IMG/VR virus record: IMGVR_UViG_2061766007_000575
Source of the DNA: an uncultured virus (IMG/VR IMGVR_UViG_2061766007_000575)
Taxonomy: Duplodnaviria > Heunggongvirae > Uroviricota > Caudoviricetes
DNA length: 34,246 bases
Direction: 5' to 3' (one strand)
Part shown: positions 648 through 34,246 of the stretch, piece after piece
Position numbering within the stretch: the stretch's first letter is position 1
Layout of the letters: every line of letters starts with the position of its first letter
Made by a program: the position numbers and the translations under genes
The notes under the pieces: generated by a model
What the model was told of the DNA's origin: nothing
Seen by the model: the letters and a program-made list of their open reading frames with translations, nothing else
Database searches by the model: none

Positions 648-2000
648 ATGGATAAATTAATTAGAGAATTCCCCGTGACTGTCTATGGTAACTTAACCAA
701 ATATTCTGAGACAATTTCGAAAGCCAGATGCAGAATATTTTATAGGGGCGCGAATAGAAATGGTACTTATATTACTGATGAGTTTGCTGAAAAGTTACTC
801 AGTACCATTTCCTACTCTCCTGTAAAAGGTATTTTTGAGGAGTCAGAAAATGATTTTACTGACCACGGCACAGAACGGAGTCTCGGTCGCATCTATGGTG
901 TTGTGCCAGAGTCTCCAAATTTTGCTTGGGAAACTTTTTTAGATGAAGATGGCGTTGAACGCGAATATGCTTGTGTAGATGTTCTTCTTTACACAAGCCT
1001 TTATAAAGAAGCACAAGATATTCCTGGCAAATCTCAGTCTATGGAACTTTATGCTCCTTCTATAAAAGGCAATTGGGAAATTGTTGAGGGTAAGAAACTT
1101 TTTAAATATACGGATGGATGTTTTTTAGGATTACAAGTTTTAGGTGATACGGTTGAGCCTTGCTTCGAAGGCGCCGCCTTCTTCACCTTATACGAAGCTT
1201 TTGTCAGAATGACGAAAGAGTTAGAGAAATTTGGTTATACGTTATCAAAGGATAGAGAAGAAGGAGGATTATTAGAAATGAAGGTTAACTTCAAACTTTC
1301 AGATGCTCAAAAGCACGATGGCCTCTTTTCTCTGTTAAATGAGCAATACAACGAAGAGAATGGCTGGATGATTACCTATGCCATTTGCGATGTTTATGAT
1401 GAGTATGCAGTTTGCTATAACTATGAAGCTCAACAGTTTGAGAGAGTTTATTACACAAAGGATGATGCGACTGACTCTCTGACTCTGGGTGATAGAATTC
1501 GTTGCTATATTGTTGATGTAACAGAAAAAGAAAAAATCGCGCTTGAGGCATTACAGGCTTTAAATGGCGGCAATTTTGAGCTTGTTGATGAGAAATATGC
1601 AAAAATTGCCGAATATGAGCAGAAAATTGAAGAGCTGGATTCTTCTGTTTCTACTTTAGAACAGGAAAAGGGTGAACTTTCCTCTCTCTTAGAAGAGACA
1701 CAAGCCACTCTTACTTCCGTAGAAGAGGAGAATGCTTCGTTAAATTCTTATAAGAAAGAAATTGAAACTGCTGAAAAGATGAGGGTCATTGATTCTTATG
1801 CTAATTTACTTGCAGAAGATATTCTTGACAGTTTCAAAGAAAAGGTTGATGAATATACTGCAATCGAATTAGACAAAGAACTGGCTTATTCTTTAAAGCA
1901 AAACAATTTTTCTGCTTTCCAGAAAGAAGAGTTTCAGGTTATCCCCAAGGACAACCCGTTAACTGGTATTGAAGCTATTTTATCTAAATATAAAAAATAA
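648..2000 (+). CDS. Prohead protease / scaffold fusion
   Basis: N-terminal domain has 'GANRNG', 'DFTDHG' (His) and 'KSQSMEL' (Ser), as in HK97/herpes-like maturation proteases. C-terminal part is an acidic coiled coil. Located between portal and capsid; GGAGG RBS. Confidence 0.8.
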   Translation: MDKLIREFPVTVYGNLTKYSETISKARCRIFYRGANRNGTYITDEFAEKLLSTISYSPVKGIFEESENDFTDHGTERSLGRIYGVVPESPNFAWETFLDEDGVEREYACVDVLLYTSLYKEAQDIPGKSQSMELYAPSIKGNWEIVEGKKLFKYTDGCFLGLQVLGDTVEPCFEGAAFFTLYEAFVRMTKELEKFGYTLSKDREEGGLLEMKVNFKLSDAQKHDGLFSLLNEQYNEENGWMITYAICDVYDEYAVCYNYEAQQFERVYYTKDDATDSLTLGDRIRCYIVDVTEKEKIALEALQALNGGNFELVDEKYAKIAEYEQKIEELDSSVSTLEQEKGELSSLLEETQATLTSVEEENASLNSYKKEIETAEKMRVIDSYANLLAEDILDSFKEKVDEYTAIELDKELAYSLKQNNFSAFQKEEFQVIPKDNPLTGIEAILSKYKK

Positions 2001-2014
2001 TGGAGGAATAAAAA

Positions 2015-2590
2015 ATGGCTATTAATAGATTAGCGAAAGACGGCTATGGTCAGTTAGAGCTGAACCAGGTTGCCTTCCGTAGAGATGGCCGCATCGAGGC
2101 ACAATGCGCCTTAGATGCTACCGCTTTTGCGTCTGTTCCTGCTGAGAATGGTATGGTTCTTTGCGTTGATAATGTTAATCGCGTAATTAAGCTCCCGACC
2201 TCTGCTAACATGGCGCTGTATCCGATTGCGCTCAATTATTCTGCTGAGCATCTGTATGATGAGCGCGCTCTTGGTTTAAAGAACTTTAAGCTTGGCATTA
2301 ACGATGGTTTTTATCCTCGTTTAGGTTATCTGGCTGTTGGTGATAAGTTCACTACTAACACCATCTGCTATGATACTTCTGATTTTGCTGATGATGATGC
2401 TGTTAAGGCTGCTTATGCTGCTATTGCTACCACTCCGCTTTATGCTGTTCCTTATCAGGATGGCTATTGGCAGTTAGTTGATACTCAGCCGCAATCTGGT
2501 CCGTACTGCGCAGTTGTTACTGGTACTGGCGCTGGCTCTATGCCTGATGGTCAGTATGCTATTAAGCTGCAAGTTTATGCGACCCACTAA
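2015..2590 (+). CDS. Putative head decoration / capsid-associated protein
   Basis: 191 aa with 'AENGMVL' and 'LAVGDKFTTN' motifs. Immediately upstream of the major capsid gene (YonC-like position), with the same high-expression codon bias. Confidence 0.6.
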   Translation: MAINRLAKDGYGQLELNQVAFRRDGRIEAQCALDATAFASVPAENGMVLCVDNVNRVIKLPTSANMALYPIALNYSAEHLYDERALGLKNFKLGINDGFYPRLGYLAVGDKFTTNTICYDTSDFADDDAVKAAYAAIATTPLYAVPYQDGYWQLVDTQPQSGPYCAVVTGTGAGSMPDGQYAIKLQVYATH

Positions 2591-2613
2591 TTTTTGAGAA
2601 GGAGGTAAAAATA

Positions 2614-3645
2614 ATGGCTACATTTGCTGAATTAAAAGAATTAGCTCTGCATGCTGCTAAGGGTACTGCGCCCGCCACCTTCTCTGTGGAAGATGTCAAT
2701 GCCGCATTACGTGATGGCTTTAAAGAGCTTGCTGGTAATTACAACCAGTTCATGAAGAATCGTTATGATATTTATCAAATTATAATTGAGACCGTTGATG
2801 AAGTTGTTCCTAATCGTGTATCTGACGCTGTTGGCATTTTTGCTGATGTTCGTCAAGCTGCTCAGGGCGAGAAAGTTATCTTCAAGCAGGCTGTTGGCAA
2901 ACAGCGCGCGAAGAAGTTCTTAACCCGCGTTGGTCTGTCTGGTGTTTATGAGACATTCCGTCTTGACCAGACCACTTTTGAGCTGCCTGTTTATGCGATC
3001 GGTGGCGCTTGCACCCTCGACTTTGAGCGTATGCTTGATGGCGCTGAGGTTATGAGCGAGTACATGGACGTTATGACTGATGCTCTGACCGATTCTATTT
3101 ATCTTGAGATCCAAAAGACTCTGCGCGCTGCTGTTAACACCATTCAGCCGACTGCTAACAAGTATGTTGGTTCTTGGAATGCTGATCAGATGGTTCGTCT
3201 TTGCAACATTGTTAAGTCCTATGGCCAGGGCGCCACAATCTTTGCGCCTCCCGAGTTCATCGCGGCTATGGGTCCTGATGCAATCGTTCCTGTGTCTGCT
3301 GTTGGCCAGGGCGTCTATCATCCGCAGGATATTGATAGAATTCACTATCAGGGTTACATCAACATTTTCCGTGGCAACCCGATTGTTTCTTTCCGTCAGT
3401 CTTATGTTGATGATGAGAATACAAAGGTTGCTATCGATCCGCAGTTTGCTTACATTCTGCCGACCGGCGGCGAGCGTGTTGTAAAGGTTGTCCTTGAAGG
3501 CCAGACCCAAATCTGGGATTGGAAGAACAAGGATCAGTCTATGGAGATTGATCTCTACAAGAAAGTTGGTGTTGGTATTCTCTCTACCCGTAACTGGGCT
3601 ATTTATCAGAATACTGGTATCACCGCTCCTCTGTATGGTGGCTAA
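2614..3645 (+). CDS. Major capsid protein (HK97 fold, inferred)
   Basis: 343 aa, strong AAGGAGGT RBS, biased codon usage, followed by a strong terminator; canonical position in the head module. Confidence 0.85.
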   Translation: MATFAELKELALHAAKGTAPATFSVEDVNAALRDGFKELAGNYNQFMKNRYDIYQIIIETVDEVVPNRVSDAVGIFADVRQAAQGEKVIFKQAVGKQRAKKFLTRVGLSGVYETFRLDQTTFELPVYAIGGACTLDFERMLDGAEVMSEYMDVMTDALTDSIYLEIQKTLRAAVNTIQPTANKYVGSWNADQMVRLCNIVKSYGQGATIFAPPEFIAAMGPDAIVPVSAVGQGVYHPQDIDRIHYQGYINIFRGNPIVSFRQSYVDDENTKVAIDPQFAYILPTGGERVVKVVLEGQTQIWDWKNKDQSMEIDLYKKVGVGILSTRNWAIYQNTGITAPLYGG

Positions 3646-3669
3646 GTCCTACGGTATATAAGTGAAATT

Positions 3670-3698
3670 GGGGAAGGGGTTTTCCCCTTCCCCTTTTT
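3670..3698 (+). terminator. Rho-independent terminator after the capsid gene
   Basis: GGGGAAGGGG-TTTT-CCCCTTCCCC followed by TTTTT. Confidence 0.9.
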
Positions 3699-3738
3699 GA
3701 AATAAAAAAAATTTTTTGAGTGAAAAGGAGTAATTAAA

Positions 3739-4227
3739 ATGGAAAACAAACAAGTTGAATTAGTAAGCACTATTAATGCTTATGTTGGTATTGATGTCCC
3801 AGATTTACATCTGAAGAGACTGTGGGAGCGTAAGGGCGCGAAGAAGTCTATTCCGCTTGATGTCCTGCGCGAAGCTATTTATGATCCGAGTGTTGAGTAT
3901 CTTCTGCGCGAAGGTATTCTCTATATTGAAGATTTAGACACGAAAATTGAATTAGGTCTAGAGGATGAGAGTGCCAAGGAACCTGGCGCGCAACTTAACA
4001 TTCAACTCTTAAAAGAAGAGGAAATGAACCGTCTTTTAACTGTTGTGCCTATTTATGACTTTAAGGCTAAAGTTAATGATTTAAAGAAAGAACAGGTTCA
4101 AGCTTTAGTTGACTATGCAATTACGCATGAGATTACTAACTTTGAAAAGTGTGAATATTTAAAGGAGCTTACTGGACACGATATTATTCGTACTGTTCAG
4201 TTGAATCATGACGAAAAGGAGGATTAA
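3739..4227 (+). CDS. Conserved head-module hypothetical protein (YonA-like position)
   Basis: 162 aa ORF with AAGGAG RBS, directly after the capsid terminator. Confidence 0.6.
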   Translation: MENKQVELVSTINAYVGIDVPDLHLKRLWERKGAKKSIPLDVLREAIYDPSVEYLLREGILYIEDLDTKIELGLEDESAKEPGAQLNIQLLKEEEMNRLLTVVPIYDFKAKVNDLKKEQVQALVDYAITHEITNFEKCEYLKELTGHDIIRTVQLNHDEKED

Positions 4228-4229
4228 CA

Positions 4230-4658
4230 ATGACTCCTTATTGGAAGGTTTACGACGCTTTCTTGGCTAAGACTTTGGAAGATGAATGGGGTCAATGGAT
4301 GCCGGAAGAAACAGAAGCCGATTTACGAGTAATTTTAGAAGGCGCCATACCTTATTTTAAGTTCCCTAGAACTAGTTTAGAAAGAGATGCGGAAGGATTT
4401 GTAAATGATTTAACTCCTCAGGAGATTCAAATTCTTTCCGTTTATATGAAGTGTGAATGGTTAAATAGATCAATAATGACATGGGAGAATGTAAAACCAT
4501 TGTATGAAGAAAGGGACTTCTCTCAAGCTAATTTATTAGATAAGTTAAAAAGTACTCTTGAATACGAACGGACTAATGCCGCGCGCATGGAAGACTTTTA
4601 TTATCGTTCTATAGATGGGAAATCTTATAAATATAGTCAATTAGCAGGTTCTAAATGA
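4230..4658 (+). CDS. Putative head-tail adaptor/connector
   Basis: 142 aa, helical; 'MTPYWKVYDAFL...FVNDLTPQEIQILS...DFSQANLL' resembles SPbeta-type adaptor proteins; position. Confidence 0.6.
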   Translation: MTPYWKVYDAFLAKTLEDEWGQWMPEETEADLRVILEGAIPYFKFPRTSLERDAEGFVNDLTPQEIQILSVYMKCEWLNRSIMTWENVKPLYEERDFSQANLLDKLKSTLEYERTNAARMEDFYYRSIDGKSYKYSQLAGSK

Positions 4659-4927
4659 TGAGTGAGTATATTTCTTCTGTAAAAGAAGGATATAATAATA
4701 AATTAAGAAATAAACTGTTCGGGCTACTTTGTGAATTTGAAAAAGGGCGCGAATGGGAGAAGTTTCTTGATTCAATTCTAATTGAATTAATGGGATTTCC
4801 CGAAGAAGAAAAAACAATTAACTATTTCACACTTTGTCATAAATTATCTACTTTAAGATATTTAAAGTATGAATATTTTCGTTCAACAATTTTTGATTGT
4901 ATGGATTTATTAGGCAAGGAGGGATAA
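4655..4927 (+). CDS. Hypothetical protein (neck region)
   Basis: 90 aa ORF with ATGA overlap on the upstream stop. Confidence 0.6.
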   Translation: MMSEYISSVKEGYNNKLRNKLFGLLCEFEKGREWEKFLDSILIELMGFPEEEKTINYFTLCHKLSTLRYLKYEYFRSTIFDCMDLLGKEG

Positions 4928-4929
4928 CT

Positions 4930-5673
4930 TTGGCTGATAAACCTCCAATTGGGTACTATGATATTTATTTAAAAAGATTAAATAGATATGGGTTGAATTA
5001 TCAAGAAAGGACTCAAAAGAAGCGTGAACGTGAGTTTGAAGATTACATGCTCAAAAGCGTTTATTTAATTGATTTTGATTATTGTTGTGAAAATCACCCA
5101 GGTACCTTTGAAAGATATAAACAAGATGAAACCGAAACTTTGCATTATCTTTTAACGAGAGTCGACCTTAATATGCCGGCCGGCACTGTTCTTATGTTAC
5201 CAGATAAAGATGATATAAGACGCCCATGGATGGTTTGGTATATTGAGAGAATTAAAGCTAGTGGATATAACCGTTATATCATGTTAAGAATGACTCATTT
5301 TCTTACTTGGAAAGATCGTAGTGGTGAGACAAGAAAATCTTGGGCATATATGTATGGTCAAGAAAATAATATGTTAAAAGATGAATTGCAATCGCGCAGT
5401 CGTATGGATACAAGATATACGGAAAATTTGAAACTAAGTTTCTTTGTTATGCCAACGACACCCTATATCCGTAAAGATGATTATTTAGAAGTTGGAAAAG
5501 GCTTATTACAAGAATCTTATCGTGTTACTGGTTATGATATTCAATCTACTGAAGGAGTTGAATATGTAAGCGTCGATCCAATTTATAAATATGACTTGAC
5601 ACCGCCGCCAGAAGAGCAGCCTGGAGATAATCCAGAAGACTTCTATTGGCTTAATGGAGGTGGCACAGAGTAA
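4930..5673 (+). CDS. Putative head closure / neck protein
   Basis: Likely TTG start at 4930 behind a GGAGGG RBS (ORF track starts at 4897); beta-rich; position in the neck cluster. Confidence 0.55.
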   Translation: MADKPPIGYYDIYLKRLNRYGLNYQERTQKKREREFEDYMLKSVYLIDFDYCCENHPGTFERYKQDETETLHYLLTRVDLNMPAGTVLMLPDKDDIRRPWMVWYIERIKASGYNRYIMLRMTHFLTWKDRSGETRKSWAYMYGQENNMLKDELQSRSRMDTRYTENLKLSFFVMPTTPYIRKDDYLEVGKGLLQESYRVTGYDIQSTEGVEYVSVDPIYKYDLTPPPEEQPGDNPEDFYWLNGGGTE

Positions 5674-6170
5674 TGGGAGTTAGAAACTGTCGAGATATAG
5701 GAGAGAATCTTCAGAAGATTTGTAAAAGATTGATGGCTAATGATAAGTTAGTAAATCTTTTATATTTTACAGATAAAGATCCTATTAATCATGAGCCACT
5801 TACAGAAGATAAAAAGAAGGAATTTATCTTTGAGAAACTTATAAAAATTGTGCCTCGACTTGGCGCGGAAGAAAAAGAGCTTGCAACTTCAATAATCTCA
5901 ATTCGTGTAGTGCGTGGACGACAAAATAGTGAAAATTCAGAGTTTAAAGATATGATAATTGAAATTGAGACTTTTGTTCCTTTAACTCAATGGATTATTA
6001 AAGATTCTAATTTGCGTCCTTTTGCTATAATGGGTGAGGTTCAAGAAAGTCTTAATGGAAAAACAATTAATGGTTTAGGCAAAATGGTTGGCGGAGATTT
6101 TGATTTACAATTTTTATCTGAAGAAATATCTTGTTATGTACAGATGTTTTATATAACCAGTTATGAGTGA
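5673..6170 (+). CDS. Putative tail terminator / neck protein
   Basis: 165 aa; 'RPFAIMGEVQESLNGKTINGLG' C-terminal motif; located upstream of the tail tube region. Confidence 0.5.
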   Translation: MGVRNCRDIGENLQKICKRLMANDKLVNLLYFTDKDPINHEPLTEDKKKEFIFEKLIKIVPRLGAEEKELATSIISIRVVRGRQNSENSEFKDMIIEIETFVPLTQWIIKDSNLRPFAIMGEVQESLNGKTINGLGKMVGGDFDLQFLSEEISCYVQMFYITSYE

Positions 6171-7317
6171 TGCTGCAACTTTTCTTTGTTTACCAAAGGA
6201 TTTTAAGCAAAAGTTTTTAATATATCCGCCAACNNNNNNNNNNCAGAACTCTGAAAATTCAGAATTCAAAGATATGATTATTGAAATTGAGACTTTTGTT
6301 CCTTTAACGCAATGGATTATTAAGGATTCTAATTTGCGTCCTTTTGCTATAATGGGTGAGATTCAAGAAAGTCTNNNNNNNNNNCTTATCTGAAGAAATA
6401 TCTTGTTATGTACAGATGTTTTATATAACTAGTTANNNNNNNNNNGGTTAAGCAAGTAGTCGGCAATCCTAAATTTAATCAATATAGGGCGCTTTTAACG
6501 CTTTCACAAGAAGAGTTAGAAGACGTTTTTATAAAGAATAATAAACAAAAAGGATTTAACGACTATGATAAATTTAAAGTACCTACTCCTTTTGAGTATT
6601 TTATGGCTAANNNNNNNNNNAGTTAAGCAAGTAGTCGGTAATCCTAAATTTAATCAATATAGAGCGCTTTTAACACTTTCGCAAGAAGAGTTAGAAGATG
6701 TTTTTATAAAGAATAATAAACAAAAAGGATTCAATGACTATGATAAATTTAAAGTACCTACTCCTTTTGAGTATTTTATGGCTAATAGCTATCACAATAA
6801 AGAAGTTGAGGAAATTGCTAAAGAAGCTTTTTACTTCTTTACTAAACAAACAATTAGTTTTCTTTATGAAGAAGGTTTAATTTTAATTGGTGATTTAGAG
6901 GATGAACTGAAAAGAGTTGGAAAGCATTTAGATGCCCTAGTTTTTCTTACTGCTGATGAATTTTTTGAATTTCAAAATGCAATTAGAGAGAGTTTGGGAG
7001 AAGATAAGATTGAGCCTCCTGATCCAACTCTTCATCCGAAAATTAGAAGAATGAAGGCTTTAGCGCGTTATAGAGATAAAATAAAGGCAAAAAAAGGAAT
7101 GGGAATAACTTTAGAAACTACTTTGGTTTCAATTTGTTGTATGGGAATAGGAATTACTCCACTTAATATTGGAGAGTTAAGCTATGCGTCTCTTTCTACA
7201 TTAATGCGGTCTTATCAAGAAAAAGAAAAGTACGAAATTGATGTTAGGAGTCTACAAGCAGGCGCGGATGCTAAAAAAGTAAAACCAAAATATTGGATTA
7301 GAAATTTAGATAAATAA
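6163..7317 (+). CDS. Conserved tail-module protein (~255 aa), interrupted by scaffold gaps and duplicated fragments
   Basis: Joining 6163-6233 to 6621-7317 gives a continuous frame (..IYPPTVKQVVGNPKF..), 768 nt. The intervening pieces are allelic duplicates. Confidence 0.65.
6244..6610. repeat. Allelic duplicate fragments between N gaps (assembly artefact)
   Basis: 6244-6374 repeats ~5921-6051, 6385-6435 repeats ~6113-6163, and 6446-6610 repeats ~6621-6785, with mostly synonymous SNPs. Confidence 0.85.
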
Positions 7318-7335
7318 ATTAGGAGGCTATAAAGA

Positions 7336-8494
7336 ATGAATATTCTTGATAGATATGGCATTAAAGAGGTCGCCGACGTTACCTTCTATGAAATTAATAA
7401 TGATGGTAGTCCGAAGCTTCCTGTCTTATATCTGGATACTTTAAAGGTTACTACTATTGAGCAAACAGCTGAAGAGACTGAGGCTCGTGGTGGTAAAGGT
7501 AATGCCGCTCTGATAGCTTGGGACTATGGTAAAGAAATTAATGTTACCATTGAGGATGCTCTGTTCTCTGCAAAGTCCATGGCTATTATGTTTGGTAATG
7601 GTGCAGTTGTTCCTTATAGTGGTGAAAGTGCTTATATTATGAAAACTGAGCAATTTACCGCTACTGATAATGGTACAATTGCTGATGATGCTAATGCAGA
7701 TATTCTTGGCTGGAAAATTAAGTATATTGCTCCAGATGGTAAAGAATATACTAAGCTTAACCCAAAATTCTTCACTGCTGAGGGTAAAAAGTTAGAAGAT
7801 ACTTATGTAGTAGATACTACTGTTACTGCAACTAATTTTGCCGATAAGAAAGCTAATTTATATACAAAGAGTGGAGATACTTATACTTCCGCTTCAAGTG
7901 CTACTTATAGTGCTTCTGAGACTTATTATTTAAAAGTTAATGCTATTAAAGGACAAACTTATTTCTGTTCTTATGACTTATTAGTTGATGGTGCTGTTAT
8001 TGAAGTTTCTGCTAATAGTTTCCCAGGTACCTATTATGTAACTGGTGACACTTTTGCTCGTTCTGAGGCTTCTGGTAAGGATGAGTTCTTCCAGTTTATT
8101 ATTCCTAAGGCAAAGGTTCAGTCTGAGAACACTATNNNNNNNNNNCGACTTATTAGTTGATGGTGCTGTTATTGAAGTTTCTGCCAATAGTTTCCCAGGT
8201 ACCTATTATGTAACTGGTGATACTTTTGCTCGTTCTGAGGCTTCTGGTAAGGATGAATTCTTCCAGTTTATTATTCCTAAGGCAAAGGTTCAGTCTGAGA
8301 ACACTATAACTCTTGAGGCCGAAGGTGATCCTTCTGTTTTCAATATGAACCTGAAGGTTCTGCGTCCTGCTGATGGTATTATGATGAAGCTTGTTAAATA
8401 TGATCTGCTTAATGGTACCGATGCTACTACAACTCAAAGTGAGATGTATCATAACCATTACTTAGACGTTGCTAATGTTCCTGCTGGTAACTAA
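7336..8494 (+). CDS. Major tail tube protein (~328 aa after removing the duplicate 8146-8307)
   Basis: 'YGIKEVADVTFY', 'ARGGKGNAALIAWD' and 'IIPKAKVQSENTITLEAEGDPSVFNM' are typical of SPbeta YomU-like tube proteins. Joining 7336-8135 to 8308-8494 is in frame. Followed by a terminator. Confidence 0.8.
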
Positions 8495-8508
8495 TTAACT
8501 AAATAATC

Positions 8509-8550
8509 AAAAAAAGGGTGGATGGCCGGCGCTATCCACCTTTTTCTTTT
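8509..8550 (+). terminator. Rho-independent terminator after the tail tube gene
   Basis: GGTGGATGGC-CGGC-GCTATCCACC then TTTTTCTTTT; A-tract upstream. Confidence 0.85.
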
Positions 8551-8561
8551 AGGAGGCTAAA

Positions 8562-9347
8562 ATGGAAAACGAATTCTCTCTTAAAGAATTGTATGATGTC
8601 TTCTTAAAAACTACTTATCCTATGGAGATTGCTGGAAAACAATTCCAAGAAGGAGAAACGCTTTGTGTTTTTGATAAAATTCAAATTGCACAATTTAATG
8701 AAAAGAAAACAATAATCACCGCACATGGTGGTTTTGAAGATAGAGATAGAGTTGTTTGGGAAGCTACAAAAGAAGTTCAACTGGACTTCGCACAAGGAAT
8801 TTTTAATCATTTACAGTTTGCGCTTTTAGTTAATGCTCAATTAATTTATACTGCGCCACAGTCTTCAATTAAGATTCCAATTCAAGAAATTTTAGAAAGT
8901 AATGAAAATAGTCAAATAACTCTTTCAAAAACCCCTTGTGGTAGTCCTTTCTTTTATAAAAAGGATACGGGTGAAAAAGTTCAATTAATTTTAGTTGAGG
9001 AAAATACGTATACGGCGCCGGAGGCATATAAAGAATATATTTGTAATTATTATTATGATTACAATGATGGCGCACAGTTCGTAACAATTGGAAATCAATT
9101 AATTAATGGGTTCCTTCGTTTAGAAGGAAAAACGCGAGTAAAGGATGATATTACAGGCAAAACAAGGACCGGAATTATAGAGATTCCAAAATTAAAATTA
9201 GTGTCTGGTTTATCTATGAGGTTGGGGAAAAATGCGAATCCTGTTGTGGCAAATTTTAGAACTTTAGCTTTGCCAGTTGGAACGGGTGGAAGAAGTACTG
9301 TAATTAATATCTTTTTCCTCAATGATGATGTGGATAGTGATATGTAA
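8562..9347 (+). CDS. Tail-tube paralog (minor tube-like protein)
   Basis: Collinear motif similarity to the 7336 protein: LKELYDV/IKEVADV, AHGG/ARGG, VVWEATKEV/IAWDYGKEI, IEIPKLK/FIIPKAK, NPVVANF/DPSVFNM. Confidence 0.6.
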   Translation: MENEFSLKELYDVFLKTTYPMEIAGKQFQEGETLCVFDKIQIAQFNEKKTIITAHGGFEDRDRVVWEATKEVQLDFAQGIFNHLQFALLVNAQLIYTAPQSSIKIPIQEILESNENSQITLSKTPCGSPFFYKKDTGEKVQLILVEENTYTAPEAYKEYICNYYYDYNDGAQFVTIGNQLINGFLRLEGKTRVKDDITGKTRTGIIEIPKLKLVSGLSMRLGKNANPVVANFRTLALPVGTGGRSTVINIFFLNDDVDSDM

Positions 9348-9350
9348 TAG

Positions 9351-9389: not shown

Positions 9390-9405
9390 ATTAGGAGGGA
9401 ATAAG

Positions 9406-24892: not shown

Positions 24893-24923
24893 ATAATTAG
24901 AAAGTAAAAAGGAGTCGAATTAA

Positions 24924-26060: not shown

Positions 26061-27013
26061 TAGACTCCGGTAGAGCCAAATCCGCCGCCACGATTATCGC
26101 CAATTTCTTCAACAGAATCGACTCTAAAGAAGGCAGCCTTTGGCACTTCTGAAAGAACTAATTGAGCAAACTTTTCCCCCTTTCCGATTGTATAAGATTG
26201 ACCATATTCAATATCACCTTCGGTTAAAGGAAGAGGTTGAGTGGTCTTAGCTCCATTTTCATGAAGTTCAAGAATTTGTTCTCTTAAATGAATCGCGCGA
26301 ATTGGAGGATCAACATTTTCAACAATAACTCCAACTTCATCTCTATAGCCTGCATCAATAGTGCCTGGAGTATTAGCAATTCGAAGTTTTGTTTTGAGAG
26401 CGCGACCGCTCTTTGGACGCACTTGTAGTTCATACCCCGGCGGCAGTGCAACTTTAAAGCCCGTTGGTATTAACTTTGTCTCACCTGGTGCGATTGTATA
26501 GTCATCAAGGGCATAGATATCAAGTCCACTATCATCAATATTAGCATATTGAGGAATTTTAGCGTCTGGGTGACAAAGTTCAATCGGAATTTGAATAATG
26601 CGTTTCGCAATACCTTCAGTTTCTTGAACTGCATTGACAACAGAACCCATAACTTCTTTTAAAAAGTCCTTTTTCTGATCTGATAAGCCTTCAATCTCAT
26701 CAATTTCATCCACCATTGGAAGGAAAATTTGGAGTAAATCTTCGGCTTTGGCGCCGGATGCGTTCAATGACTGAACAAGACTTATCTTATCATTTGGATT
26801 ATTGAGGGTTTGTTGAAAACTTTGAAGGACACCTGGCGCGAGAAGCTTAAAGTTTTCCTCGTCCATTGAGAGAAATGTCATAAATTGCTTTAAAATTGCA
26901 TTTTCTTCATTGTCTTCGCTTAAAAGTTCTTCAAGAGTTTTAGAAATTTCTTGGACTTGTTCTTGAGTAAGAGTTTCATCCTTTTTTTCTTCTAAATCTA
27001 TGATATCTGCCAT
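26060..27013 (-). CDS. dut: Trimeric dUTPase with ~135 aa N-terminal extension
   Basis: All five motifs are present: SGLDI, RPKSG, GTIDAGYRDE, FAQLV, RGGGFGSTG. Confidence 0.9.
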   Translation of the reverse strand: MADIIDLEEKKDETLTQEQVQEISKTLEELLSEDNEENAILKQFMTFLSMDEENFKLLAPGVLQSFQQTLNNPNDKISLVQSLNASGAKAEDLLQIFLPMVDEIDEIEGLSDQKKDFLKEVMGSVVNAVQETEGIAKRIIQIPIELCHPDAKIPQYANIDDSGLDIYALDDYTIAPGETKLIPTGFKVALPPGYELQVRPKSGRALKTKLRIANTPGTIDAGYRDEVGVIVENVDPPIRAIHLREQILELHENGAKTTQPLPLTEGDIEYGQSYTIGKGEKFAQLVLSEVPKAAFFRVDSVEEIGDNRGGGFGSTGV

Positions 27014-27014
27014 T

Positions 27015-27341
27015 TTATTTCTCCTTGAAGGTTATATTTCCAGTTGTTGAGCTAGTATAAGTTGAATCTGAACTTATAGTAGCATTAGAAGTAATTGAAT
27101 CTCCACAAGTTATAGTTCCTTCTGTTGAAGTGCTTGTAGAAGTCCAAGTAATCGGTGAGTAATAAGGCCATTTATAATAATAAGGACAACTACCATATCC
27201 ATAAGGACAACTATAAGTTACAGAGCTACAAAACTTCCTTCCATCTTTATAACCTTCATCATATTTTTCTTTTAAGAGTTTTTCAAGTTCAGCCTTAGTG
27301 AGGTCTACTTTTCCACTTTTTACATCAACATAAATAATCAT
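27015..27341 (-). CDS. Hypothetical protein
   Basis: 108 aa with 'YDEGYKDG', a Y/C/P-rich middle and S/T-rich tail; translationally coupled within the operon. Confidence 0.6.
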   Translation of the reverse strand: MIIYVDVKSGKVDLTKAELEKLLKEKYDEGYKDGRKFCSSVTYSCPYGYGSCPYYYKWPYYSPITWTSTSTSTEGTITCGDSITSNATISSDSTYTSSTTGNITFKEK

Positions 27342-28057
27342 TTATCTATTTCTCCTATAAAATTTTTTAATTTTTTATCAATATCATCATTTTTATAAAT
27401 GTATAATATTGGAATTTTATTGGTAATACAAAATAAATATTTTTGTTGGTCATTATATTTTCGTTGTATATAACTTTCCTGACCACCAAATTTTTTAACT
27501 GGATAATAATGTTGTTCTCCCTGATATTCAATTAAACCAGTTAATTTATTGTTTTTAAAGATTCCAAAATCAAATCTTAATTGGCCGCCATTATACCCAG
27601 TTAGTTCTTGAAACTTATACTCTTTCTGATATTCAATTTGATGAGTTGATAACCATTGAAGAATTAAAAATTCTCCTTTTGACTTCATACAACCACAAGA
27701 TTTTTGATTTCCTGATCTTAAATCTGTACCGGCTACATTACATTCTCTACCACATAGACATTTACAATGCCACATTATTTTATTACAATTGGAATTTTCA
27801 ACTCTATATAATACTGTTAAATATCCATAAATGTTTCCGGTTTCATCTATATAACCAGAACGTTCTTTTTTAAGAGGGCAGTTTCTTCCACAAGTAGTAA
27901 TTCTTCCCGTTCTTAAATCTGAACCTCTTACTATTTTAGTATTACCACAATCACATTTGCATAACCATGCTGTTCTGCCATTTTTATCTTTTGTTAATTC
28001 AATAGGAGTTAAAAAACCATATTTATTACCTATTTCATCAATTAGTTTTTGACTCAT
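27338..28057 (-). CDS. Free-standing homing endonuclease (two CxCxCG DNA-binding repeats plus a PD-(D/E)xK/Vsr-like nuclease)
   Basis: 'WLCKCDCGN..GSDLRTG..TCG' and 'WHCKCLCGR..GTDLRSG..SCGC', then 'SKGE', 'LRFDF', 'IEYQGEQHY'. ATG at 28057 behind GAGGTG. Confidence 0.8.
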   Translation of the reverse strand: MSQKLIDEIGNKYGFLTPIELTKDKNGRTAWLCKCDCGNTKIVRGSDLRTGRITTCGRNCPLKKERSGYIDETGNIYGYLTVLYRVENSNCNKIMWHCKCLCGRECNVAGTDLRSGNQKSCGCMKSKGEFLILQWLSTHQIEYQKEYKFQELTGYNGGQLRFDFGIFKNNKLTGLIEYQGEQHYYPVKKFGGQESYIQRKYNDQQKYLFCITNKIPILYIYKNDDIDKKLKNFIGEIDK

Positions 28058-28109
28058 TTTTCTCACCTCTACTTAAAAGTAGATTTTATAGTCAAAAACT
28101 TCACCTTTT

Positions 28110-28325
28110 TCAGTCTTCCCAAATGTCTCCATAAATAAGAACAATTTTACAAAGCCACTTCTCACTTATAATTTCACCTTTGGATTTTTTAGTTTTATGG
28201 GTGTATCCGGCAGCGCCTATAATATAGCCTTTTTCACTGGCTTCTTTACGATACTGCTCAATACATTCTTTCGCGCCCTCTTCAGTATCTGTCCTCAGTT
28301 CGAGGGTTTCCTTTAAAAGTCTCAT
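28110..28325 (-). CDS. Hypothetical protein
   Basis: 71 aa ORF with GGAGGAG RBS. Confidence 0.6.
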   Translation of the reverse strand: MRLLKETLELRTDTEEGAKECIEQYRKEASEKGYIIGAAGYTHKTKKSKGEIISEKWLCKIVLIYGDIWED

Positions 28326-28336
28326 TTTCTCTCCTC

Positions 28337-28966
28337 CTAATTAATTAAAAGTTTATCAGCATAAGGTAATGTTTCTATCCATTTACAGAATATTTTCCAT
28401 TCTGGTAAAGCGTGATTTTTTCTTTGTAGATATATGTTACGCAAGCATCGGTAGTTTGTTGCAATGCGCGCAGTGATTTTAAAACCTGATGGATTTGAAT
28501 ATAAGATTTCAAGATATTTATTTTGTAAACAAGATAAACGATATGTCTCTGCGGCAACGCCAAGAGTTTTTACTTTACATATATCATTATATTCTTTAAT
28601 TTTTTCTTTCATGATTTCTATAATGCGTGGATCGACATAGTTGATATATTGTTTATCTAAGTCGAATTTAGTAATACAATGCATTGTAGATTGAGAACTT
28701 ACAAACTCTAAAAATCTATATCGCTCTGCTTCTAACCAAGCCTTATTAGTAAAAGTTAAATCAAAATTAACTCTTATACCAGTCATAAATTGATTATGTG
28801 CGCCATTGCCAGTTTTTGTGGCTTCATTGAGCGTTTCGGCGCGACCGACATCTTTTTGATCAAAGGGATGGATGAGGTTTTCTGTCCTCATCGGGTAACC
28901 ACTTGCAATTAAAGATTCTTCTAAATCATAAATTTTTACATTATTAATAATATCGCTAATTTCCAT
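28337..28966 (-). CDS. Divergent ThyX-like (flavin-dependent thymidylate synthase fold) protein
   Basis: 'HNQFM', 'EAERYRFLEFVSSQSTMH' and 'TNYRCLRNIYLQRKNHALPEW' align in position with the ThyX H.S..E / RHR..S...S.R / N.R......R motifs. Nucleotide-metabolism context. Start at 28966 behind AAGGAG. Confidence 0.55.
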   Translation of the reverse strand: MEISDIINNVKIYDLEESLIASGYPMRTENLIHPFDQKDVGRAETLNEATKTGNGAHNQFMTGIRVNFDLTFTNKAWLEAERYRFLEFVSSQSTMHCITKFDLDKQYINYVDPRIIEIMKEKIKEYNDICKVKTLGVAAETYRLSCLQNKYLEILYSNPSGFKITARIATNYRCLRNIYLQRKNHALPEWKIFCKWIETLPYADKLLIN

Positions 28967-28967
28967 T

Positions 28968-29153
28968 TTACTCCTTGGTTTTGAAGTAGAGGCCACAATG
29001 GCATAAACCTTCTTTTTGTTCTCTAAATTCTTTACACATACAACGGGTATCTACTGTTTTTATTAGTTTACAAGGACAATATCCTTCGTTGGCTTTTACG
29101 GCGCGAAAGATAGCTTCTGCTTTTTCTTTATCTGGATTAAAATAAATTGACAT
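28968..29153 (-). CDS. Ferredoxin:thioredoxin reductase catalytic-subunit-like protein (FTR beta / FDR-like)
   Basis: 61 aa with 'GYCPC', 'CMC' and 'GLCHCGLY', matching the CPC/CPC/CHC FTR signature. Confidence 0.85.
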   Translation of the reverse strand: MSIYFNPDKEKAEAIFRAVKANEGYCPCKLIKTVDTRCMCKEFREQKEGLCHCGLYFKTKE

Positions 29154-29643
29154 CACTAACCCTCTTACCATATTGATTATCACTAGCGAGTTTTACGCCA
29201 AGGACTTCATCAAAATGCGGTTCTTGGTTTGGCTCATAGCGACCAAATTTTATAATAATGTTTGGATATTTGCTAATGTTTTGAAAGACGATTGCAAGAT
29301 AGGCAATAACAGATATTCTAAATTCATCTTCTGTATAACCAGTATAGATGACAATATCATCATCACATTTATACTTGTTGCGCAAGCAGTCAATAAAGCT
29401 CATTAAATCAAAAGGAGTATCAAAAGGCTCTAATCCGCCAAGAACAACAGCAGATGTCAAAGGATTTTTTAGGTATCTTTGACATACATCTTCTACTGGT
29501 ATATCAATTATTGAATTGTTAATTAAAGACGCATTTTGACATATATCTTTCCCGCATTTAAAATCGCATTTAGGAAAAGCAATATACATTGAACACTTTT
29601 TATAATTAACAATATCTTCATCAATTAAGCCAATGATTTTCAT
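29137..29643 (-). CDS. nrdG: Anaerobic RNR activating enzyme (radical SAM)
   Basis: 'CDFKCGKDICQN', 'VVLGGLEPF', 'IVIYTGY', 'KFGRY', 'LASDNQ'. An allelic copy of the N-terminus lies at 29654-29767 across the N gap. Confidence 0.85.
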   Translation of the reverse strand: MKIIGLIDEDIVNYKKCSMYIAFPKCDFKCGKDICQNASLINNSIIDIPVEDVCQRYLKNPLTSAVVLGGLEPFDTPFDLMSFIDCLRNKYKCDDDIVIYTGYTEDEFRISVIAYLAIVFQNISKYPNIIIKFGRYEPNQEPHFDEVLGVKLASDNQYGKRVSDVNLF

Positions 29644-29763
29644 NNNNNNNNNNTGCATTTTGACATATATTTTTCCCGCATTTAAAATCGCATTTAGGAA
29701 AAGCAATATACATTGAGCACTTTTTATAATTAACAATATCTTCATCAATTAAGCCAATGATTT

Positions 29764-29979
29764 TCATTTTGAATCATCCTCAATTTTTAATTGAAACTGC
29801 TCCATAGCTTCATTATAGCCTGCAATTCGTTCTTCTAATAGTCTTTGTTTTATATGATCCCATGCTGCAGGAAATAAACTACCTATCACAAATGAGAAGC
29901 TTACGTCTTTGGCGCCGACTGCTTCACTTTTTTCGACTATTTTTTTTATTTGACTAAGCGATACAGTCAATTCGTCCAT
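29764..29979 (-). CDS. Hypothetical protein between nrdD and nrdG
   Basis: 71 aa with GGAGG RBS inside the nrdD 3' end; ATGA coupling to the nrdG start at 29767. Confidence 0.6.
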   Translation of the reverse strand: MDELTVSLSQIKKIVEKSEAVGAKDVSFSFVIGSLFPAAWDHIKQRLLEERIAGYNEAMEQFQLKIEDDSK

Positions 29980-32086
29980 TTACATCCTCCCATCCTCTCA
30001 TTTTGAATTCTTCTTTTCTTTGTTTTCCCCAAGTTTTTATAGGTACATAAAAGCCTACTACTCGGGTATATTCTGTTGCGACAGGTTCACCACAAACTGG
30101 ACATTTAGTGCCAAAGAAAGCGTGATTGTGTTTACAGGCTTGAATTTTTGTGTTAAAAGCAAAATAGGTTAAGCCTTGATCTGCTATATATTCAGTCAGC
30201 GCCCAAGCTTGATCAAAGTTAGTGAAAGGAGCCTCTATATTGATGTGCGCGATTGAGCCGCCATTACAATAGGAATCAAAAAGACTAGCAATTCTGACTC
30301 TTTCTTGCATTGTAGTCTTAATTCCAAGAGGAATAAACTGATTACCATAAAGTGGTAAGTCGTCAACTACTCTATCTGGATAAAGAAGAGCATCTGCCTT
30401 TTGCATTTTAACNNNNNNNNNNACGAACTCTTTCTTGCATTGTAGTTTTAATTCCTAGAGGAATAAACTGATTGCCATAAAGTGGTAAGTCATCAACTAC
30501 TCTATCTGGATAAAGAAGAGCATCTGCCTTTTGCATTTTAACTGCCGCGGTTTCACCTGGAATTTGCTCGCAATTTATTTTATAATCTTTATCTAAAGCG
30601 AACTGGTCTTTAGTACGATGAATAACTTCAAAAATCTTCTTTCCGAAGCGGTCGGCGCTCTCTGTATAGAAAGTATTACCAAATTCATCTTTTCTTGTAT
30701 ATCCAAAAGTTTTCATTGTTTCATAGATACCAATGAAGCCTATTGTATTATATAAATGTTCAAAATCAACCAAGCCTTTTGAAAAGTTTGGAAGAAGTCC
30801 TTTCTCAACATTGCGCTGAATGATATGACGTACAACATCTAAAACTTTACAATCTAATTCAACTATATCCCGAAGTGCAACCAAATACTCTTGTTCTGTC
30901 TGATACATGAGAGCCAGTCGCGCCAAATTCACCGTCGAAACTTTAACTGAACCAACTTTCAGTGCCGTACCACCAATTGAATTGAAGTAACCTAAATCAT
31001 CAATATTACTTTTAAGACGGCAACAATTAGAAAGACTTGTGACACTATCATCAATAAAGAGGTTTGCATCTGCCCACTGCATATTATGTTTAATTGCCCA
31101 GCGCGCAAATTCTTCATCTGCAAATTTACCATTCTGTCGNNNNNNNNNNAACACTATCATCAATAAAGAGATTTGCATCTGCCCATTGCATATTATGCTT
31201 AATTGCCCAGCGCGCAAATTCTTCATCTGCAAATTTACCATTCTGTCGNNNNNNNNNNTGCAGCCTCTTCCATAAAGACTTTTTGAAATTTACAAATTTC
31301 TTCAAGCTCATCAATCATAAAACTGCCATCGGGGAATTGCGCGCCACCAAACAGTGCCTCAAGATAAGGATGATCAAAAACGCTCACATTAGTAAAAGCA
31401 CTCTGCATACCATCGCGCACATAGGGCTGATTTATGGCATAGATAAAGCGCTGAATTTGCTGTTTTTGATGATATTCTGGACTTTTTGTTGCATATCCTT
31501 CTTCGCAGTCCTTTTTCCAAAAATAATACATATATGGAATGAGATTTGGAAGACCTACAGCGCCGGAACTTCTGTTAGCTGCAAAACTAATATATTCTTT
31601 GACAAAATCAACAAAAGATTCAAGATGCTGTGGTGGTTCTGGATTAAAATTGTCTAAAAAGAACAACCCTTTTTCTGCTAAATCTTTTAAATCATAAGCA
31701 AAACAGTAATGAACATATGTACAAGTATCACTGTCATGCATATACAGAAGTTTTGTCCATTCGGCGCGCAGCCAATCATTTGCAGTTTTAAATCCATATT
31801 TTTTATTGAGTTCATAATGAATTTTATTGAAGGCTAAAAGTTTGCGATGCGGTTTTGGCATTTCATTCATAAGAGTTCTCATATCCTTATTGCCAACATT
31901 AGCATTTCCATCTATTGAAGCATCAGCAACTGTTTCACTATCAATAAAATTATCAATAAAATCAGTTAAACTAAGCTGACTATCACCAAAACCATTTAAA
32001 TAGGCAAATTCTTCACCATATTCTGTTTGTAACTTATTAAATTGAGTCGTAAAGTTCTTTTTTAATCTTATATTTACTTCTGCCAT
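29954..32086 (-). CDS. nrdD: Class III (anaerobic) ribonucleotide reductase, fragmented by three scaffold gaps with duplicates
   Basis: 'YCFAYDL', 'QSAFTNVS', finger loop 'SNCCRL', 'GSVKVSTVNL', 'EQIPGE', 'NGGSIAH', Zn site 'CKHNH...CPVC', glycyl-radical motif 'TRVVGF'. Confidence 0.92.
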
Positions 32087-32087
32087 T

Positions 32088-32294
32088 TTATCCCTCCAAA
32101 GAATTAACCCATTTTACGGCTTCTCCGAAGGGAAAGCTTTGTCCATCAATTTTTAAAACTGGAACCTCTGTGTAGCCTAGCGCCAGCATTTCGTCAACAT
32201 TAGTATGTTCAGTATATTGGACACCTTTAAGTTCAAGTTTCTTTTCTAATGCAAGACATTTGGGACAATGGGTTGTATATAATTCTACATTCAA
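32088..32294 (-). CDS. nrdH: Glutaredoxin-like NrdH redoxin
   Basis: 68 aa with 'YTTHCPKC' and 'VPVLKIDG'; immediately upstream of nrdD. Confidence 0.85.
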   Translation of the reverse strand: MNVELYTTHCPKCLALEKKLELKGVQYTEHTNVDEMLALGYTEVPVLKIDGQSFPFGEAVKWVNSLEG

Positions 32295-32488
32295 TCTGCC
32301 GAAGCCTCCTTATAACAATAGATACAATATCCATCTTGGAAATTATGTTTACATTGTTTTTGGAGTTCTTCATTTTCTTTTAAAAGTTGCGCCACGGTAT
32401 TATTTAAAGTAAACTTATTTGGAGTTAGTAAATTTTCAATCATTTGATTATTATAATCAATTTTTGTTTTAATGTCTTTAACGTTCAA
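32291..32488 (-). CDS. Hypothetical protein with C-terminal CxH...CxxC
   Basis: 65 aa; 'CKHNFQDGYCIYC'; coupled to its neighbours. Confidence 0.55.
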   Translation of the reverse strand: MNVKDIKTKIDYNNQMIENLLTPNKFTLNNTVAQLLKENEELQKQCKHNFQDGYCIYCYKEASAD

Positions 32489-33596
32489 GTTCTATTTTCC
32501 CTCCTTGGATGTGTGCTCCGCTATTTTCATAAAACATTTTAAATAGGTTAGGATAGTTTTTTTGAGCATAGGAAAAAATTTCTATTGCTTCCGGCTGTAT
32601 AATTATTTCGTTATGATATTGATCTTTTTCTCTTAATTGTTTAACAAAATAGAAAAGGGAACTTGTTTTTTTTCCATTACCAGTTCTTCCATAGGCTGTA
32701 AATAGATTAAACATTTTTTTAATTTCAGGCGGAACTAAAAAACTATCGTTACATATAAGTAGAAAATGTTTGCAGTTTTTATATAGAAATAAGACTTGTG
32801 TATAAATTTTTATTAGGGCTTCTTCTGAAAAATCATCTGGGCCGTATGACGCCGGCAAGGGATTATAAATTATATTTTTGGATTGAGTAAGATTAATTTG
32901 AGATATAATCGTAGCTAATTCTTCATCAGTAAACATTCCATTGTACTGAAGAAGAAAGTTAATTGATGCAAAAGTAAAATAAAGCCATTTAGAAAAACTA
33001 ATATAGTCTGAACAGATAATTGGAAACTTATTACATAAACTAATTTTTTGTTTGCTTGAAAAACGATATTTTTCCATTATAAGTGTAATGTTTTCCGCAG
33101 CAAGCTCTATATCATTTAAATTATAATCATGTAAAAAGAAAACCCGAGCCTTTGTGTTGCGAGGAATTTGCTTTTCAAAATCTTTCCAAATTGTCTTTCC
33201 ATCAAGTGATAAACGAAAATGTACGCCATGCGTTAATGTTGTATAAAATAATTTATTAAGAGCCTTGTCTGCGAGAAACTGACTTTTATATCTATCATAA
33301 ATTGTCACATCCGGCGCGCACCGCTCAATTTCTTCTTTCATTGGAATATATCTATTGCCGGAGAAGGCTTTGCCGCCGAAAACAAGATTGTCATGTTTAT
33401 TTAAATCACTTTGAAAGTCTCCATCATTAAAATCTTTTCTATAAAAGAATTTTGTATATCGCTCTGGCGCGAAAGAAGGAGCCATAACAGTTATTTCCTT
33501 CTTTCGCTTATAATAGGTTGAGAGCTTCATTAACTCAAGATTAAAAATTGTTTGATGATATTTGAAGAAGTCGGCGTCATATAAACCTACACTCAT
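32478..33596 (-). CDS. Degenerate radical-SAM-family-like protein (no CxxxCxxC)
   Basis: The N-terminus 'VGLYDAD..FNLELMKLSTYYK..GGKAF..EEIERCAPDVTIY' resembles a phage radical-SAM family N-domain; the cluster-binding motif is absent. Confidence 0.45.
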   Translation of the reverse strand: MSVGLYDADFFKYHQTIFNLELMKLSTYYKRKKEITVMAPSFAPERYTKFFYRKDFNDGDFQSDLNKHDNLVFGGKAFSGNRYIPMKEEIERCAPDVTIYDRYKSQFLADKALNKLFYTTLTHGVHFRLSLDGKTIWKDFEKQIPRNTKARVFFLHDYNLNDIELAAENITLIMEKYRFSSKQKISLCNKFPIICSDYISFSKWLYFTFASINFLLQYNGMFTDEELATIISQINLTQSKNIIYNPLPASYGPDDFSEEALIKIYTQVLFLYKNCKHFLLICNDSFLVPPEIKKMFNLFTAYGRTGNGKKTSSLFYFVKQLREKDQYHNEIIIQPEAIEIFSYAQKNYPNLFKMFYENSGAHIQGGKIELER

Positions 33597-34246
33597 TCAT
33601 CATCACCTGCTCTCGCGCCGGAGACTTTAATATTACCTTTATCATCTATTTCGGTTATTAGCTCAACTAAATGATATGGGGTTCTTGCATATTTCTTTGC
33701 AATAAAACTATCTTCACGCCGAATACCAGTTACTATAATTTTATTTCCTCGACTTAACCACGACTTTTCAATAACATGCTTCTTACCATCGGCTCCGCGC
33801 TCACTAAGCTGTTTATCATAATGAGTAAACACTTGACCAAAAATCTTTACTGTTACAACTCCACTCTTTGTAAGCAAAGTTACCATTTTCTTTGCTTTAT
33901 CCTTATCAAGAACTGTTCCCATAATTCGAGTTATTTTAAATAGAGGAACTTTTTTACCTTTTATAAAAATTACTCTATCAACAGGAGGTTCTTCGGGTAA
34001 CTCATAAAAGTCGCTAAAATCATATAACTTCTCTCTTACTTTTGCTAATTCGTGTTCGTGGGAATAGAAGGATACAGAATCCATTTCCCATTTACTAATC
34101 GTTCCAAGACAATATTTATTCCATGTATCACTCATCAATCTTGTGTTAATTACATTGAGTAACTCATCATGATGAGCTTTTACATATGGACGAACCTTAT
34201 CCATATTCTTTTTATAAATATTATCCCAAGAAGTTTGTTTGATGCG
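33593..34246 (-). CDS. dnaE: DNA polymerase III alpha subunit, C-terminal OB-fold part (5' truncated by the window)
   Basis: 'WEMDSVSFYSHEHEL' corresponds to the DnaE 'E...GFY.S.HPL' motif, followed by an OB fold ('IMGTVLDK..VTLLT..VTVKIF..KIIVTG'). Frame is open to the window end. Confidence 0.75.
   Translation of the reverse strand, partial: RIKQTSWDNIYKKNMDKVRPYVKAHHDELLNVINTRLMSDTWNKYCLGTISKWEMDSVSFYSHEHELAKVREKLYDFSDFYELPEEPPVDRVIFIKGKKVPLFKITRIMGTVLDKDKAKKMVTLLTKSGVVTVKIFGQVFTHYDKQLSERGADGKKHVIEKSWLSRGNKIIVTGIRREDSFIAKKYARTPYHLVELITEIDDKGNIKVSGARAGDDE

Follow-up and report, generated by a model that had tools for sequence, protein, structure and literature searches.

Why should a GC-rich hexamer recur throughout an AT-rich phage genome? 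The question arises from a 34,246-bp stretch of DNA from an uncultured virus of the Caudoviricetes (IMG/VR IMGVR_UViG_2061766007_000575), hereafter the window (GC content 33.7%), for which a first-pass annotation had recorded 21 dispersed copies of GGCGCG or its complement CGCGCC. The window comprises bases 89124–123369 of a 123-kb phage record (G000) that CheckV rates as 100% complete, 6.2 kb of the record being N. The hexamer proves to be part of a shorter, one-sided word family, 5′-G-S-C-G-C-(not T)-3′ (S, G or C), present with its complement across the window (positions 1..34246, both strands). The excess of this word is firmly shown and family-wide; any reader named for it here is a candidate.

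The word and its distribution in the genome

All 21 sites are exact: GGCGCG occurs on the plus strand at positions 747, 3835, 3985, 4746, 5862, 7261, 10598, 20935, 26835, 28838, 29100, 31763, 33313, and 33466, and CGCGCC (GGCGCG on the minus strand) at 18639, 22476, 25171, 28272, 30919, 31340, and 33614. None is an assembly duplicate. A zero-order model gives an expectation of 1.6 hexamers (1–2 had been estimated), and the placement within genes in both orientations holds for every site: 21 of 21 lie in open reading frames (ORFs), 12 sense and 9 antisense, with all three frames used and with distinct flanks. Under 300 within-gene synonymous shuffles of the window, which preserve the encoded proteins, 4.0 ± 1.9 hexamers are obtained (maximum 10). 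Genome-wide, in the 101 of 169 called ORFs that remain when short, doubtful, and N-rich ORFs are left out, codon shuffling gives 8.1 GGCGCG and 5.4 CGCGCC vs. 48 and 28 observed, with every frame raised. The first-pass annotation had allowed that the enrichment might disappear under a codon-preserving shuffle; it does not, because the excess survives synonymous shuffles both in the window and genome-wide.

The hexamer is not itself the unit, as a maximal-order Markov model already gives 17.9 of the 21 copies. Each GGCGCG contains GGCGC, a strong member of the word family, and GCGCGC (55 vs. 9.1) and CGGCGC/GCGCCG (71 vs. 13.8) are as enriched as GGCGCG. Enrichment of GCGC is graded by its flanks, from W-GCGC-W (W, A or T; 39 vs. 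46.9, 0.83×) through S-GCGC-W (2.2×) to S-GCGC-S (5.0×), and this gradient therefore points to a one-sided five-mer counted once or twice rather than to a palindrome; the non-palindromic GCCGC is enriched equally. Position weight matrix (PWM) fits from different starts converge on the graded, one-sided consensus given above, and independent PWM fits recover an S-rich 5′ run leading to a (C)GC end, with T disfavored on the 3′ side. GSCGC/GCGSC has 103 sites in the window, of which 101 are in ORFs (vs. 41.7 ± 6.2 under codon shuffle). In a conditional-logit model of synonymous choice that includes terms for codon, gene, and local GC content at third codon positions (GC3), the best single term is GCGSS/SSCGC [odds ratio (OR) 2.8, z 22.9]. 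Words made of G and C alone are depleted if they include a GGG or CCC run.

The proposal that a DNA-level signal is laid over the genes is borne out, in that neither frame nor strand limits the excess and non-coding DNA carries it as well (36 vs. 18.1 and 31 vs. 11.6). GSCGC and CGCGC together number 394 on the plus strand and 393 on the minus strand of G000, and the strand counts in two further genomes are 481/501 and 480/462. All gene classes are enriched, the tail tube and tape-measure genes least (GCGSS OR 1.9, vs. 3.2 for replication and head genes). Homing endonuclease genes have an OR of 4.3, on 19 counts, which rules out a depletion in mobile genes. The tape-measure gene (9376..17385, plus strand; GC3 0.15) had been described as sparse in sites; it does hold only one GGCGCG/CGCGCC hexamer, but GSCGC is still enriched there (18 vs. 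7.6), and the sparseness is partly due to the low GC3. No tandem array or cluster of the word marks a packaging (pac) site or origin in G000, and an iteron or pac-like array was set aside as none was found. Density dependence was likewise rejected, having opposite signs in different genomes.

Turnover of sites and variation among relatives

Conservation of the individual positions, which had been suggested as a check, is not observed: sites turn over between relatives. G002 retains 8 of 22 hexamers and 62 of 123 GCGC sites; for G001, the numbers are 23 of 51 and 132 of 235. This partial retention leads us to reject fixed functional positions. In 13 close genome pairs (some genomes are shared between pairs, which are not fully independent), motif-completing synonymous transition sites have a pi of 0.63 vs. 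0.21, and GC-rich-flank controls without the word have a pi of 0.22, like background. Relative to control sites, gain of the word is raised 2.8-fold (2.3–3.4) and loss is reduced to 0.43 (0.35–0.53), so that a pure cold spot (gain ×1) and a pure hot spot (loss ×1) are both excluded; selection of strength 1.8–2.0 predicts gain of ×2.2–2.3 and loss of ×0.31–0.36. At four-fold sites, the completing base is favored alike over its transition and transversion partners (G000 OR 2.8–6.8 and 3.2–4.9, respectively, for GCGC and five-mer sets). Because transversions are favored as much as transitions, deamination and T:G repair are not the main force; pooled data contain a small extra depletion of transition neighbors at outer positions (z −2.6 to −4.8). 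The site dynamics are selection-like, weak selection and biased conversion being inseparable from sequence data.

The word is restricted to one phage family, in which it takes lineage-specific variants. The family was found using the probable major capsid gene (2614..3645, plus strand; phrog_4088, unnamed) as the query; its capsid role is suggested by position and size, and it has a GC3 of 0.45 and 9 GCGC sites vs. 3.4 expected. Forty-four DnaE-anchored loci were fetched, of which 41 (including several near-duplicates) had enough coding DNA to score. All 41 carry a version of the word: 30 have a GCGC OR of at least 2, and the other 11 have a TGCGG OR of at least 2.2. In whole records, the lineage words are GSCGC (G000, G001, and G009), a GCGC-type word (G010), GCCGCA (G008, G011, G013, and G015), CSGCA (G012, where the fit is C-S-G-C-A with GC invariant), CCGCR (G004 and G014), and TGGCGC (G007). 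The variant follows the primase/helicase clade across GC3 values of 0.16–0.42 and two genetic codes, and on the primase tree (a quick tree with hand-assigned labels, in which kin share labels) the three variant changes are the minimum. In locus L027, the N-terminal part of DnaE is 71% identical to that of G000, yet the locus has the other word variant, which matches its distant primase and helicase. Judged by the capsid-type gene, the closest complete genomes that bear a name are Phass-1, with GCCGC as the top word (OR 2.5, z 12), and the Enterococcus phages H1/EF1; the signal in H1 is weak (GSCGC OR 1.9, z 4.9; OR 1.6, z 2.8 in the independent part). A scan of GTDB returned a single locus, in a Bacteroidales metagenome-assembled genome, where it is probably misbinned.

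In outside DNAs (nine phages and three Clostridia chromosome stretches of 40–50 kb used as proxies), the GSCGC OR is 0.46–1.66, vs. 3.40 in G000. Host bias, which had been raised as a possible source, is thus not seen at equal strength in the three chromosome proxies, which are possibly not those of the host. The Monoglobus proxy has a GSCGC OR of 1.43 (z 3.9), with CCGC and CGGC words at up to 2.4, and because of this mild elevation the host control is suggestive; the GCGC OR in Subdoligranulum DNA is 1.5.

Other compositional features vary among these phages. GCGC is nearly absent from G004 and G014 (loci L039 and L040; 1 vs. 44 in G004), where GGCC and CCGG are strongly avoided and GCGG/CCGC is favored 6–8-fold; the near-absence points to restriction of GCGC by the host. 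Four genomes have additional raised words that are richer in AT: CAATAG and CAAGAG in G004, CAATAG in G014, CAATAC in Phass-1, and CAAGAG in H1. The Sextaecvirus phages L105 and L106 strongly avoid CCGC/GCGG and CGGC words (OR ~0.4 or lower), opposite to the relatives of G000. G001 has almost no GATC (0–5 per 5-kb bin) except around the tape-measure gene, where one bin holds 11, hinting that the tape-measure gene was recently exchanged. Many relatives are apparently TAG-recoded, unlike G000, in that coding coverage rises when TAG is read through: genomes G007, G009, G012, and G013, and loci L016, L021, L022, L024, L026, L027, L030, L034, L036, L041, L044–L046, L048, and L049.

Candidate readers of the word

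Our leading but tentative explanation, put forward as a real possibility, is that the word may be the template priming site of the phage's own YorJ-like primase (G000:16943–17986, outside the window; phrog_47 E 5e-43, TIGR01391 E 4e-15, below cut-off, and PF01751), which has a CH..C..C zinc motif and similarity to DnaG. The primase would start Okazaki-fragment primers at the word (predicted primer pppGC-G-S-C), and weak selection would keep G-S-C-G-C-(not T) two- to five-fold in excess on both strands. At 35% GC, chance would supply a GC-only five-base site roughly once in every 4 kb of a strand, so that each new site would bring a small benefit, with a scaled strength of ~1.9. Both strands may be enriched because forks run both ways, as in recombination-dependent replication, and G000 encodes recombination proteins (Sak4-like, RecJ, UvrD-like, and RuvC-like). 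A phage-encoded reader would fit because the variant tracks lineage across very different GC3 values and two genetic codes. The primase resembles the SPbeta YorJ type (the VPE25 homologue is annotated “YorJ B. subtilis homolog”; NCBIfam PRK08624, phrog_47) at 33–38% identity over the full length, with a conserved helicase–primase–RecJ gene order; the zinc domain in the G000 family differs in having a longer loop. For YorJ-like primases, the specificity proposed here is a prediction from genome statistics.

The sites of the SP6, T7, T4, and Mycobacterium tuberculosis DnaG primases are likewise short, one-sided words in which the 3′ core is fixed and the 5′ extension graded, and the phage primase is of the zinc-binding TOPRIM type, as in known primase systems. 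T4 primase also uses GCG. The G012 word C-S-G-C-A ends in GCA, the SP6 site, and fits a rule of a middle pyrimidine and a cryptic third base; a clear GC-A end is present in G012 and the GCCGCA lineages, and all fits are one-sided. In the primase literature, sites are short and one-sided, with synthesis starting opposite the middle pyrimidine and a cryptic third base (PMC2532735, PMC5737085); the SP6 site is GCA (PMC2532735, PMC5737085) and the T4 site GTT (PMC2532735, PMC12839067), T7 primase extends GTC to 5′-(G/T)2GTC-3′, and the M. tuberculosis DnaG site is 5′-GC(G/C)-3′ (PMC12839067). In G008, the sites on one strand are spaced more evenly than expected by chance (coefficient of variation 0.66 vs. 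0.87, p 0.003), and this holds weakly in G004, G014, G007, G013, and G001; overlap-safe spacing tests gave p < 0.05 in 9 of 28 cases vs. 1 of 32 control-word tests. In two T7-like genomes, with GATC controlled for, TGGTC (1.57) and GACCA (1.64) are raised on both strands.

Several results weigh against the primase. The primase rule discriminates little because it fits more than one register, and in G000 the 3′ base is merely “not T,” with the last C less constrained than CG. Tracking of the primase tree is also tracking of kinship. The G000 word differs from known primase sites in being equal on the two strands, denser than the T7 standard, and not evenly spaced. No lagging-strand polarity is apparent in G000 (394 vs. 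393), and a coding-strand excess is only ~1.3-fold and inconsistent by region; the density of one site per 0.3–0.5 kb per strand exceeds the need of T7-size fragments, which are 1–6 kb (PMC12839067); and spacing is not even for GSCGC in the G000 genome (p 0.81), for G012 (p 0.98 and 0.80), or for GCCGCA in G013 (p 0.75). The words in the positive spacing tests were chosen post hoc, and these tests are not mutually independent; in a spacing search over 322 words, none replicated. Five phages outside the family, with primases 35–37% identical, lack the signal (OR 1.0–1.7), and the T7-like control is weak, in that GGGTC, GTGTC, and TTGTC are not enriched there. Ten small minus-strand genes in an early region dense in promoters have no excess (7 vs. 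7.4), unlike 19 other genes of similar GC3 (84 vs. 35.9), and a similar early-gene dip is present in G001 and G009 and, more weakly, in G004 and G007. The idea of a motif-free first-injected region is weakened, as early intergenic DNA carries the excess, partly via a repeated element. In a fuller version of the primase reading, weak selection across the genome would inscribe, in the genes of this large gut/rumen Firmicutes phage family, a priming map for its own YorJ-type primase, with GGCGC/GCCGC, GCCGCA, CSGCA, CCGCR, and TGGCGC as readouts of primase specificity and the shift of G004/G014 to CCGCR steered by host restriction; taken whole, this is rather doubtful.

Among the sources that the first-pass annotation had listed, the best fit is a site at which a phage DNA-handling protein acts, whereas the HIP1-like (highly iterated palindrome) methylation option is not supported. 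Such a protein could be other than the primase: the RuvC-like Holliday junction resolvase (25344..26060, minus strand; phrog_827 E 1.7e-20), a putative terminase-associated zinc-finger protein, the type II topoisomerase, or an abundant helix-turn-helix (HTH)-like DNA-coating protein. For the resolvase, the word would be a preferred place of cleavage at branched concatemers. The evidence for selection and for a phage-borne determinant fits these candidates equally, and a reader of double-stranded DNA is a simpler explanation than a primase for the missing polarity; the resolvase and a phrog_3314 protein are common to G001, G004, G007, G009, H1, and Phass-1, and the resolvase was found also in G008. 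We nevertheless consider another phage protein somewhat unlikely, given that no array or cluster of the word marks a pac site or origin, and that the per-strand regularity in some relatives is unexpected for a double-strand reader. Known resolvase preferences extend over 2–4 bases, which counts against the resolvase; the HTH-like gene was detected in G001 and G009 only; and the topoisomerase was not detected in the searched stretches of H1, while gyrase-type genes occur in the negative controls VPE25 and GR1. A non-adaptive drive toward the word, by sequence-directed mismatch repair, gene conversion, or a context-dependent error spectrum of the polymerase, appears unlikely, even though faster gain and slower loss are also expected from biased conversion, a graded, degenerate word family suits a biochemical bias, and early genes under strong codon bias would resist it. 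The small extra depletion of transition neighbors at outer positions and the standalone DUF559-like nuclease gene beside DNA ligase speak for such a drive. However, transversions are favored like transitions, so that neither T:G repair nor protection from deamination would be the main force; the gain and loss rates exclude pure cold and hot spots; L027 combines a DnaE near that of G000 with the word of its distant primase and helicase; and a drive would leave the even spacing in some relatives unexplained. HIP1 and the alternative HIPs of cyanobacteria (GCGATCGC, GGCGCC, GCsGC, and rCCGGy) are among the closest known systems, each alternative HIP being tied to a cognate enzyme (PMC4390886); in the G-meC model of Elhai, HIP1 is ascribed to sequence-directed mismatch repair or gene conversion. 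The phage word resembles HIP1 as a short, GC-rich, dispersed, and frame-independent word without polarity whose sites turn over, but it is one-sided and degenerate rather than an exact palindrome, its excess is ~2–6-fold vs. tens-fold, its pattern is not transition-specific, and it sits in a phage family. The cognate methyltransferase that had been suggested as a check was not found in G000 or related near-complete genomes, for C5, N6/N4, or Dam types (PF00145 in 0 of 10 virus records; PF01555 and PF02086 in 0 of 5; none among 132 ORFs, 6.2 kb of G000 being N); this argues against a repair drive and removes the direct parallel to the alternative HIPs.

Selection of the word for a host protein, most plausibly as a Chi-like signal for AddAB of clostridial hosts, seems distinctly unlikely. 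Chi words are also short and positively selected through coding sequence in phages LLS, MD8, and P1 (PMC12315714, PMC3784561, bioRxiv 2021.07.08.451572), phages can accumulate Chi (PMC3784561, PMC12315714), and the Firmicutes Chi words AGCGG, GAAGCGG, and GCGCGTG all contain GCG (bioRxiv 2021.07.08.451572), a core they share with the phage word; the mild CCGC/CGGC excess of the Monoglobus proxy also speaks for a host signal. Known Chi words are not enriched in G000, however (AGCGG OR 0.83; GCGCGTG 0 sites), and AGCGG is mildly raised in G007 only (1.43). The phage word has no orientation bias, whereas Chi-rich phages have 20 vs. 3 and 32 vs. 0 (PMC12315714), and G000 encodes its own Sak4-like recombinase, phages with recombinases tending to lack Chi (PMC3784561). 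The variant follows phage clade despite very different GC3 and genetic codes, and a weak version occurs in an Enterococcus phage (OR 1.9, z 4.9), while two phages with similar endolysins are without it. That the word is a side effect of how codons or codon pairs are used, of local duplex stability, or of amelioration toward a GC-rich host is largely refuted and highly improbable. The likely hosts (Oscillospiraceae or relatives) can be GC-rich, and Subdoligranulum DNA has a raised GCGC OR (1.5); the excess nonetheless extends to every frame, to either strand, and to DNA outside genes, flanks that are GC-rich but lack the word have no effect, GC-only words with GGG/CCC are depleted rather than raised, and the twelve outside DNAs have an OR of at most 1.66. 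Local duplex stability in particular is ruled out by the GC-rich-flank controls and the outside genomes.

Selected short words in phage genes are an already known kind of signal, as exemplified by Chi. No account of this word or of the family signature was found in the literature searched, subscription journals and supplements being outside its coverage. The word is a heritable, lineage-specific DNA word under a selection-like bias throughout the coding DNA of a widespread family of gut phages. If the primase reading is correct, recognition sites would be predicted for the first time for primases of the SPbeta YorJ type, the family would supply a natural variant series pairing zinc-domain sequences with sites, and primase specificities would be readable from genome statistics alone. 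If another protein or a repair bias is responsible, the word would still be a family signature usable to assign contigs, and would present a problem like that of HIP1, in a system where no methyltransferase was found.

Gene content and other features

Sequencing runs that contain part of G000 are mostly bovine gut metagenomes, and endolysin matches point to Oscillospiraceae or related Clostridia as likely hosts. The window encodes portal, head, tail, tape-measure, and nucleotide-metabolism genes, and ends with a C-terminal piece of the phage DnaE-type polymerase (33593..34204, minus strand). G000 as a whole encodes a type II topoisomerase, a Sak4-like protein, a DnaB-like helicase (G000:15367–16956, outside the window), the primase, RecJ, DnaE (G000:20985–23720, outside the window), ligase, a UvrD-like helicase, and the RuvC-like resolvase. 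The 85-aa HTH-like gene (G000:6637–6894; GC3 0.45) is probably highly expressed and is a candidate for a DNA-coating protein. The standalone DUF559-like nuclease gene (121 aa; G000:30637–31002, L002:11138–11503), which we take to belong to the Vsr superfamily, adjoins DNA ligase and has matches in G001, G004, G007, G009, H1, Phass-1, and pCD1602_4; a PDB comparison of its product gave no significant match. T:G repair by this gene as the main force was rejected, as transversions are equally favored.

On the minus strand, window positions 32478–33596 encode a 372-aa protein that is similar to B12-binding radical-SAM proteins by language-model features and lacks the cysteine motif; in 26 loci it is conserved as the neighbor of DnaE, and its H.RLS, HD, and K.P motifs are invariant. 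This gene was discarded as a candidate, having no cysteine motif and being undetected outside clade A and L035. Joins of 10 N lie near window positions 6230–6450, 8130, 29640, and 30410–31260, where the flanks are duplicated and genes (nrdD and tail genes) are split, and the last gene of the window is duplicated at G000:24829–25557; these are assembly artefacts.

Outside the window, G000:71300–79900 (L004:12800–20000 and beyond) holds an array of small genes on the minus strand, the majority having a TTGACA/TATAAT-type promoter of their own. The array contains a repeated intergenic element with AGTTAG-N5/6-CTAACT palindromes and CCCGGGC, and has 30 GATC per 5 kb vs. ~8 elsewhere (G001 has almost none). 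The region resembles a cassette of immediate-early genes, with an operator at which a phage regulator would act.

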